DNA from: a virus | Taxonomy: Duplodnaviria; Heunggongvirae; Uroviricota; Caudoviricetes | IMG/VR virus record: IMGVR_UViG_2700989363_000006 | Strand: one strand, 5' to 3' | DNA length: 8,925 nucleotides | Position numbers: made by a program | Shown: piece by piece, positions 3,001-6,000 of the stretch | Position numbering within the stretch: position 1 is the stretch's first letter | How the letters are laid out: each line of letters opens with the position of its first letter

Positions 3001-6000
3001 TGATTATTACTTTTATATCCGCAGTGTGAACACCGTTGGCAAATCGGCATTCGTGGAGGCTGTTGGTCAGCCGAGTGATGATGCATCCGGTTATCTGGAT
3101 TTTTTCAAAGGCGAGATAGGGAAAACCCATCTGGCTCAGGAGCTGTGGACGCAGATTGATAACGATCAGCTTGCGCCTGACCTGGCTGAAATCAGGACGT
3201 CCATTACGGATGTCAGCAATGAAATCACGCAGACCGTCAATAAGAAACTGGAAGACCAGAGTGCGGCAATTCAGCAGATACAGAAGGTTCAGGTTGATAC
3301 AAATAATAACCTGAACAGCATGTGGGCTGTGAAGCTGCAGCAGATGCAGGACGGACGCCTTTATATCGCGGGTATTGGTGCCGGTATTGAGAACACCCCT
3401 GACGGCATGCAGAGTCAGGTGCTGCTGGCGGCGGACAGGATTGCGATGGTTAATCCTGCGAATGGCAACACAAAACCGATGTTTGTTGGTCAGGGCGATC
3501 AGATATTCATGAACGACGTGTTCCTGAAACGCCTGACGGCCCCCACCATTACCAGCGGTGGAAATCCATCGGCATTTTCCCTGACTCCGGACGGAAAGCT
3601 GACCGCTAAAAATGCGGATATCAGTGGCAGTGTGAATGCGAACGCCGGGACGCTCAACAATGTCACGGTAAATGAAAACTGTACGATTAAGGGCATGCTG
3701 GAGGCGACTCAGGTCAGAGGTGACTTCGTTAAAGCTGTATCCAAATCATTTCCGAAACAGGCTGGTACGTGGGGTAACACGGAAACACCAAACGGGACGG
3801 TTACAGTCACCATAAGCGATGATCATAACTTTGACCGCCAGATTATTATTCCGCCCATTATTTTTAACGGTATAGCGTATGACGATCCGGGGAGCGGAAA
3901 TAACCCAGGAGGCACGCGATACACGGGTTATGGTTTTGAAGTTCGCAAAAACGGCGTATTAATCGCATCCAGAGAAACTAAAGGTGCCATTCCCGGTAGT
4001 TACAGTGCAGTTATTGATATGCCTAGTGGTGGTGGTAGCGTCACTCTGGAGTTTAAGATTTTCCAGAAAGGCAATCAGGGGGCAGGCAATATCACCGACT
4101 GTACGGTGATTGTGACCAAAAAAGCGGCTTCCGGCATCAGTATTCGTTGAAATATTTATAACCCCAATAAATGGCGTCAGGAATGACGCCTTTTTTATTG
4201 CAGAAAAGCGAGAGGTAATTATGCGTAAAGTTTGTGCAGCCATTTTGTCCGCAGCCATTTGCCTGGCCGTATCCGGTGCGCCTGCATGGGCGTCTGAACA
4301 TCAGTCCACGCTGAGCGCGGGGTATCTTCATGCCCGGACCAACGTTCCCGGCAGTGATGATCTGAACGGGATTAACGTGAAATACCGTTATGAGTTTACG
4401 GATACGCTGGGGCTGGTGACGTCATTCAGCTATGCAGGAGACAAGAATCGCCAGCTGACCCGTTACAGCGATACCCGCTGGCATGAAGATTCCGTGCGTA
4501 ACCGCTGGTTCAGCGTGATGGCGGGGCCGTCTGTGCGCGTGAATGAATGGTTCAGCGCGTATGCGATGGCGGGTGTGGCTTACAGCCGTGTGTCGACTTT
4601 TTCCGGGGATTATATCCGCGTAACTGACAATAAGGGGAAAACGCACGATGTGCTGACCGGAAGTGATGACGGTCGCCACAGCAACACGTCTCTGGCGCAC
4701 TGACGGTTTCATCGTGGGTGTCGGTTATAAATTCTGATTAGCCAGGTAACACAGTGTTATGACAGCCCGCCGGTTCAGGCGGGCTTTTTTGTGGGGTGAA
4801 TATGGCAGTAAAGATTTCAGGTGTACTGAAAGACGGCACAGGAAAACCGGTACAGAACTGCACAATCCAGCTGAAAGCAAAACGTAACAGCACCACGGTG
4901 GTGGTGAACACGCTGGCCTCAGAAAATCCGGATGAAGCCGGGCGTTACAGCATGGACGTTGAGTACGGTCAGTACAGCGTTATTCTGTTGGTGGAAGGCT
5001 TCCCGCCGTCACATGCCGGGACCATCACCGTGTATGAAGATTCTAAGCCGGGGACGCTGAATGATTTTCTCGGTGCCATGACGGAGGATGATGTCCGACC
5101 GGAGGCACTGCGCCGTTTTGAACTGATGGTGGAAGAGGTGGCGCGTAACGCGTCCGCGGTGGCACAGAACACGGCAGCCGCGAAGAAGTCAGCCAGCGAT
5201 GCCGGCACATCAGCCCGTGAGGCGGCAACCCATGCGACTGATGCTGCAGGCTCAGCACGCGCAGCCAGCACGTCAGCCGGACAGGCCGCGTCGTCGGCTC
5301 AGTCAGCGTCTTCCAGCGCAGGAACGGCATCGACAAAGGCCCGTGAAGCAGCAAAAAGTGCTGCTGCTGCAGAGTCATCAAAAAGCGCGGCAGCTACCAG
5401 CGCCAGTGCCGCGAAAACGTCAGAAACGAATGCCGCAGCATCACAAAAATCGGCAGCCACTTCTGCATCCACAGCGACCACGAAGGCGTCAGAAGCTGCC
5501 ACCTCGGCACGGGGTGCGGCGGCCTCAAAAGAGGCAGCGAAATCTTCAGAAACGAATGCATCATCAAGTGCCAGTAGTGCAGCTTCCTCGGCAACGGCGG
5601 CAGGAAATTCCGCGAAGGCGGCAAAAACGTCCGAGACGAACGCTAAGTCTTCTGAAACAGCAGCGGGACAGAGCGCCTCAGCTGCGGCAGGTTCAAAAAC
5701 AGCGGCTGCATTATCTGCCAGTGCCGCGTCAACAAGTGCCGGGCAGGCCTCAGCCAGTGCCACCGCCGCCGGAAAATCGGCAGAAAGCGCCGCATCATCC
5801 GCTTCAACAGCCACAACGAAGGCTGGCAAAGCCACTGAGCAAGCCACTGCAGCAGCGAGGTCTGCTTCTGCAGCAAAAACCTCTGAAACAAATGCAAAGA
5901 CTTCAGCAGACAATGCTGCTTCCTCTAAGGCGGCAGCCGCATCGTCAGCCAGTTCAGCGGCGTCATCGGCATCATCTGCGTCTGCTTCAAAAGATGAGGC

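Follow-up and report, generated by a model that had tools for sequence, protein, structure and literature searches.

The window, which is the whole stretch of 8925 nt that was analysed, corresponds to the entire contig CXFL01000151.1 of assembly GCA_001258255.1, and both contig ends are probably assembly breaks on repeated prophage sequence. Gene calls and Pfam matches show that it carries distal tail genes of a lambdoid prophage in the order I-J-lom-stf-tfa (Table 1). The window aligns collinearly, with about 93-95% DNA identity, to many lambdoid phages, among them lambda, 434, phi458 and Kati. No database record spans more than about 83% of it, and among complete E. coli genomes none covers more than 83%, at an identity of about 94.7%. 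Terminator-like hairpins lie after J and after lom, and the record of phage 434 has terminators annotated at the equivalent places.

Table 1. Features of the window; the limits of the shaft insertion depend on the alignment.
Feature	Position (nt)	Strand	Description and basis
I, 3' part	20-592
J	653-4150	+	tip attachment/host specificity protein (central tail fibre), 1165 aa, frame intact; ORF list and translation
J, backbone module	653-3067 (to aa ~805)	+	hub domains and two FNIII/Ig domains; common to lambda, 434 and phi458
J, shaft segment	~3068-3487 (aa ~806-945)	+	alternative allele of the alpha-helical shaft (AHS) and upper central straight fibre
J, net 28-aa insertion in the shaft	3161-3253 (aa ~837-867), approximate	+
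J, linker segment	3488-3652	+	conserved lower straight fibre, ends in SGSVNAN; DNA alignment
J, tip segment	3653-4147	+	434-type Ig-like receptor-binding domain (assigned from sequence), last 165 aa; BLASTP, Pfam, AF2
J, crossover interval in the tip-coding region	3796-3838	+	phi458-like upstream, 434-like downstream
Terminator-like hairpin followed by T-run, 3' of J	4173-4200	+	consensus scan
lom	4221-4703		160 aa, shortened
Terminator-like hairpin with T-run, 3' of lom	4764-4795		consensus scan
stf	4796/4802-8386		~1195 aa, frame intact
tfa			only the gene start lies inside the window

In relation to the lom genes of phi458 and 434 (199 aa), lom of the window lacks about 77 bp and its frame is shifted, with the junction near nt 4692-4697, and the conserved C-terminal WRTDGFIVGVGYKF* is readable in a different frame. 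Judged from its sequence, this lom is probably a pseudogene. The frame-shifting deletion, together with the isolation of the sequence on an 8.9-kb contig, could indicate that the locus belongs to a decaying, non-inducible prophage, in which J would have no present-day adsorption function in the strain. We consider this unlikely, as the frames of J (1165 aa) and stf (~1195 aa) are intact and lom is dispensable for lambda growth.

Architecture of the J protein

The first-pass annotation gave J a length of 1165 aa against 1132 aa in lambda, in agreement with the open reading frame found here; J of phi458 also has 1165 aa and J of 434 has 1137 aa. The protein matches, all above the curated cut-offs, the Pfam domains FNIII-A_GpJ (aa 86-207), Phage-tail_3 (330-485), Ig_J (610-714), Ig_J_second (716-818), Phage_Tail_Tip (872-1000) and Ig_GpJ_C (1029-1164), and it matches lambda J of PDB entry 8iyk with E=0 in phmmer. 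With this complete domain series and its I-J-lom-stf-tfa context, J is a member of the gpJ family.

J was aligned to the J sequences of lambda, 434 and phi458 at the protein level (MAFFT; 40-aa windows) and at the DNA level (60-nt windows). The backbone module has a DNA identity of about 90-100% (about 95%) to the three phages. The lambda-like body that had been described for J is clearly seen, since over aa 1-800 each 40-aa window has 92-100% identity to lambda J and the DNA is about 90-100% identical up to nt 3052.

After the backbone the similarity falls. A divergent patch had been placed at nt 3100-3450, and it is real, with true limits somewhat wider, which are those of the shaft segment in Table 1. 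The DNA of this segment is 25-65% identical to lambda and 434 and 98-100% identical to phi458, and its amino acid identity to lambda in successive 40-aa windows is 55%, 12%, 45% and 75%. Compared with lambda and 434 J it has a net 28 additional residues, opposite which the MAFFT alignments open two gaps, of 21 and 7 residues, in the lambda and 434 sequences. The extra length of J, which the first-pass annotation had implicitly assigned to the C-terminus, is therefore mostly elsewhere: 28 of the 33 extra residues are in the alpha-helical shaft, and the net addition in the 434-type tip is only about 5 aa in relation to lambda. Shaft length varies among natural J alleles, being short in lambda and 434, 28 aa longer in the window and about 73 aa longer still in P0071, always at the same site.

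In lambda gpJ, the two FNIII domains are followed by the AHS (helices at ~809-861), the beta-prism central straight fibre (CSF) and the Ig-like receptor-binding domain (PMC11101478). According to this cryo-EM layout, the shaft segment of the window corresponds to an alternative AHS plus the uppermost CSF, with the insertion inside the AHS. Residues 819-871 of J are outside any Pfam domain. An AF2 monomer model of aa 801-1165 has a mean pLDDT of 51, which makes it unreliable beyond the tip, and predicts, with low pLDDT, a helix at aa ~841-891, and a crude heptad-periodicity test of the shaft gives p~0.10 for the window and p~0.22 for lambda, neither of them significant. The model hints that the longer shaft may be helical and extended, and no coiled coil is claimed from the heptad test.

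The linker segment, in contrast to the two segments that flank it, is close to lambda (87-98% DNA identity) and to 434 (85-95%). It includes the stretch beginning with MWAVK, which had been reported as retained and is indeed present. The linker segment is the recombination linker that joins the shaft and tip modules. Engineered gpJ chimeras were fused at lambda aa 964, inside this conserved lower-fibre stretch (PMC11338833), and J of the window shows clearly, in a natural allele, the module junction (conserved lower fibre, near lambda aa 964) at which lambda particles are already retargeted by engineering.

Lambda gpJ (P03749; PDB 8iyk, 8xcj/8xck) thus shares with J of the window the domain architecture, the hub/FNIII body, the lower fibre and the Ig-like fold of the tip. 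It differs in its shaft and upper fibre, which are shorter by 28 aa with 12-75% identity per 40-aa window, in a tip that is 35% identical and in its receptor, which is LamB.

The receptor-binding tip and its candidate receptor

The C-terminal end of J had been described as unlike that of lambda, and the alignments agree. The last ~165 aa are 35% identical to lambda J (53/151 in BLASTP), far below the ~90% identity taken as the mark of the lambda LamB-binding class, so this class was rejected for the tip. Identities to lambda are 22-55% in 40-aa windows and 33-72% at the DNA level, and the two domains show loop-length differences of +8 and -6 aa. The tip type was not identified in the first-pass annotation. 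On the basis of sequence, the tip can be placed in the 434 (h434) class, defined by an identity of at least 90% to the C-terminal ~165 aa of 434 without indels: 156 of the 165 residues are identical to 434 J (95%), with 98% positives and no gaps. From aa 986 to 1165 there are 10 differences between J and 434 J (A998S, V1006I, E1008Q, S1032A, Q1036K, A1037V, N1047D, I1136V, Q1138H and G1143R), nine of which are in the last 165 aa. Over these last 165 aa, phages Evi, 2B8, PhiR26_1 and PhiR29_1 share 99.4% identity with the window, and for the C-terminal 365 aa the nearest protein cluster comes from Shigella sonnei (99% identity).

The J protein of 434 (UMO75286.1; the h434 host-range allele) is similar to J of the window in its tip (95% over the last 165 aa), in its backbone (92-100% aa identity) and in its I-J-lom-stf context. 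It has, however, a short lambda-type shaft (1137 aa in total), so the shaft of the window is 28 aa longer, and it differs by the nine tip substitutions, nt 3653-3830 of the window being phi458-like.

The tip matches Ig_GpJ_C with E=3e-25. Structure prediction had been suggested earlier as a check on this end of the protein, and an AF2 model of the tip alone has block pLDDT values mostly of 70-96 over the domain. Its best PDB matches in Foldseek (E~1e-15, TM ~0.65) are A8 gpJ (9wcb/9wca, 9wcb being with OmpC) and lambda gpJ (8xcj/8xck, 8xcj being with LamB), so that the tip is predicted to have the gpJ tip fold. Among solved structures A8 gpJ (9wca; 9wcb with OmpC of E. coli EDL933; engineered lambda chimera of PMC11338833) is nearest, with E=3e-15 and TM 0.65. 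A8 gpJ has its junction in the same conserved lower fibre, but it has a lambda-type short shaft and its tip is only 48-49% identical to that of the window. The A8-type OmpC-binding class (9wcb) was rejected on this identity; the two tips share a fold and belong to different classes. In the PDB, neither a 434-type tip nor a long shaft was found among the solved structures.

Phage 434 infects via OmpC, and lambda in which the 434 tail-fibre gene replaces J binds OmpC and not LamB (PMC11101478, PMC3509688). Natural gpJ C-termini placed behind lambda aa 964 are enough to make lambda particles use OmpC in place of LamB, and lambda particles with A8 gpJ deliver DNA through OmpC (PMC11338833). The tip sequence argues well, by homology, for a receptor of J other than LamB; given the 95% identity to the 434 tip, the most likely one is OmpC. 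Two further lines were dropped. Lambda h434 imm21 was considered as a map of the specificity to the tip, but in the sequenced lambda h434 hybrid the entire K-I-J-lom-stf block comes from 434, and for this reason the hybrid alone maps no OmpC specificity to the last 165 aa. Phage 21 was considered as a natural user of OmpC, but its native receptor is LamB and its use of OmpC evolved in the laboratory (PMC11336670). The papers found on phi458, the PhiR phages, Kati and Ayreon report no receptor for these phages.

A tip of 434 type could also have acquired, through its nine substitutions and internal crossover, the use of another or an additional outer-membrane protein, such as OmpF or a different porin, or a preference limited to some OmpC alleles, for example that of Shigella sonnei. 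Single or few J substitutions in lambda and phi21 change porin use, adding OmpC or OmpF (PMC11336670), gpJ variants that use OmpC discriminate between its alleles, with A8 and 1A2 differing in the alleles accepted (PMC11338833), and J of Gifsy-1 binds OmpC, OmpX and BtuB; the nearest protein cluster, from S. sonnei, points in the same direction. The indel-free 95% identity to 434, with 98% positives, weighs against such a shift, as do variants 99.4% identical in phages grown on E. coli K-12, for example PhiR26_1, and we hold it to be quite improbable. Whether the 1A2 gpJ has the tip type of the window was searched with six exact DNA strings of the window, which gave no match in the supplements of PMC11338833; sequence differences or line breaks may explain this result.

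That the tip still recognises LamB, its divergence being only drift among LamB-binding alleles, is very unlikely: the fold is that of the lambda receptor-binding domain and LamB, OmpC and OmpF are all trimeric porins (PMC11101478), but no more than 35% of the residues agree with those of the lambda domain, the loops differ by +8 and -6 aa, and the nearly identical 434 tip is reported to use OmpC (PMC11101478, PMC3509688).

With OmpC as the most likely receptor, the host range of the prophage can be predicted: lamB mutations or down-regulation of the maltose regulon would not protect a host, and variation in ompC would. We infer the triggering mechanism of J from the cryo-EM work on lambda (PMC11101478). 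J would form a trimeric central tail fibre, whose three C-terminal domains would, by analogy with lambda, engage a trimeric porin of the outer membrane through their distal loops. The binding signal would pass up the beta-prism fibre; a flip of the helical shaft, dissociation of the FNIII strings and opening of the tail tip would follow, and the DNA would be ejected.

Origin and distribution of the J blocks

The mosaic nature proposed for J in the first-pass annotation is borne out by the block-wise protein and DNA alignments and by the informative sites. Identity switches abruptly along the DNA alignment, from 100% to 38% and to 25% within 120 nt. At informative sites, which separate phi458 from 434, the window agrees with phi458 at 152 of 152 between nt 2991 and 3830 and with 434 at 19 of 19 between nt 3831 and 4150; inside the shaft segment, phi458 is matched at 118 informative sites and 434 at none. 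This all-or-none pattern reveals that a further crossover took place between nt 3796 and 3838, within the tip-coding part of J. The boundaries of the blocks are sharp and common to other phages, so they are not due to chance.

Base composition also changes along the gene. The GC content is 0.583 in the backbone, 0.505 in the shaft segment, 0.558 in the linker and 0.471 in the tip, which agrees with the lower GC that had been noticed at the 3' end of J, and GC3 is 0.467 in the tip against 0.698 in the backbone. The receptor-binding domain of lambda itself has a GC content of 0.561, so the low GC is particular to the tip module of the window, and the fall to 0.47 is consistent with a separate origin of this module.

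In a set of 120 relatives from the database, at least four shaft types (~98%, 82%, 60% and 40% identical to the shaft of the window) carry the 434-type tip, and the shaft type of the window is also joined to several other tip types, which are 41-55% identical. Shaft and tip modules thus assort independently among J alleles. Altogether, J is very probably a recombinant of at least four pieces, namely a lambda/434-like body, a shaft and upper fibre with 28 additional aa, a conserved linker and a 434-type tip with an internal crossover, for which the porin is most likely OmpC.

Receptor-binding proteins are generally under diversifying selection, and the divergent regions might in principle have arisen in place by accelerated mutation or by such selection, J being then no true mosaic; the abrupt switches, the shaft segment that is 98-100% identical to phi458 next to a backbone of only ~95%, the all-or-none sites on either side of nt 3796-3838, the shifts in GC and GC3 and the reassortment of shaft and tip types leave this origin a negligible probability, and it was rejected.

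Within the recombinant reading of J, the 28 aa added to the shaft might be non-neutral and, through a longer three-helix bundle, whose flip accompanies receptor binding, alter the reach of the central fibre or its triggering threshold, for example on smooth or capsulated hosts, while the tip crossover (nt 3796-3838) would tune the OmpC alleles accepted, for example that of Shigella sonnei. This is a speculative and rather improbable proposal. If true, shaft length and tip would be two host-range determinants in J, separately exchangeable.

The combination of long shaft and 434-type tip seen in the window is also found in phi458 (OP434518), cdtI (AB285204), mEp332, Ayreon, ev243, Kati and Stx2 phages, which differ from the window by alleles only; phi458, for example, has 88-94% DNA identity in nt 3831-4150. 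The region of nt 3000-4250, which comprises the long shaft and the 434 tip, is fully covered at 94-96% DNA identity in phi458, cdtI, mEp332, ev243, Kati, Ayreon, PhiR34_1 and several Stx2 phages. The tip type occurs in 74 phage records at an aa identity of at least 90% and the shaft type in 65 at 95% or more, and at least 80% of the shaft-plus-tip segment is held by 1167 of 5426 complete E. coli genomes (about a fifth). The allele is therefore common and already sequenced, and host-range mosaicism of lambdoid J is classical and already known. Apart from the natural module junction and the host-range prediction, the locus brings nothing new: its h434 tip allele is a classical one, and many sequenced phages have exactly this pairing of shaft and tip.

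The distal part of stf (nt 6337-7702, aa ~515-969) has no match in Kati, the nearest lambdoid phage, and its product is 95-99% identical at the amino acid level to the tail-fibre protein H of P2-like phages (P2, 11W and P24C9). This match to a P2-type fibre indicates that Stf is a natural chimera of a lambda Stf N-terminus and a P2-type distal fibre. The engineered lambda-P2 STF of PMC11338833 has the same design, and the engineered particle of that work is mirrored by the window, which combines a P2-type Stf chimera with a putative OmpC-type J tip.
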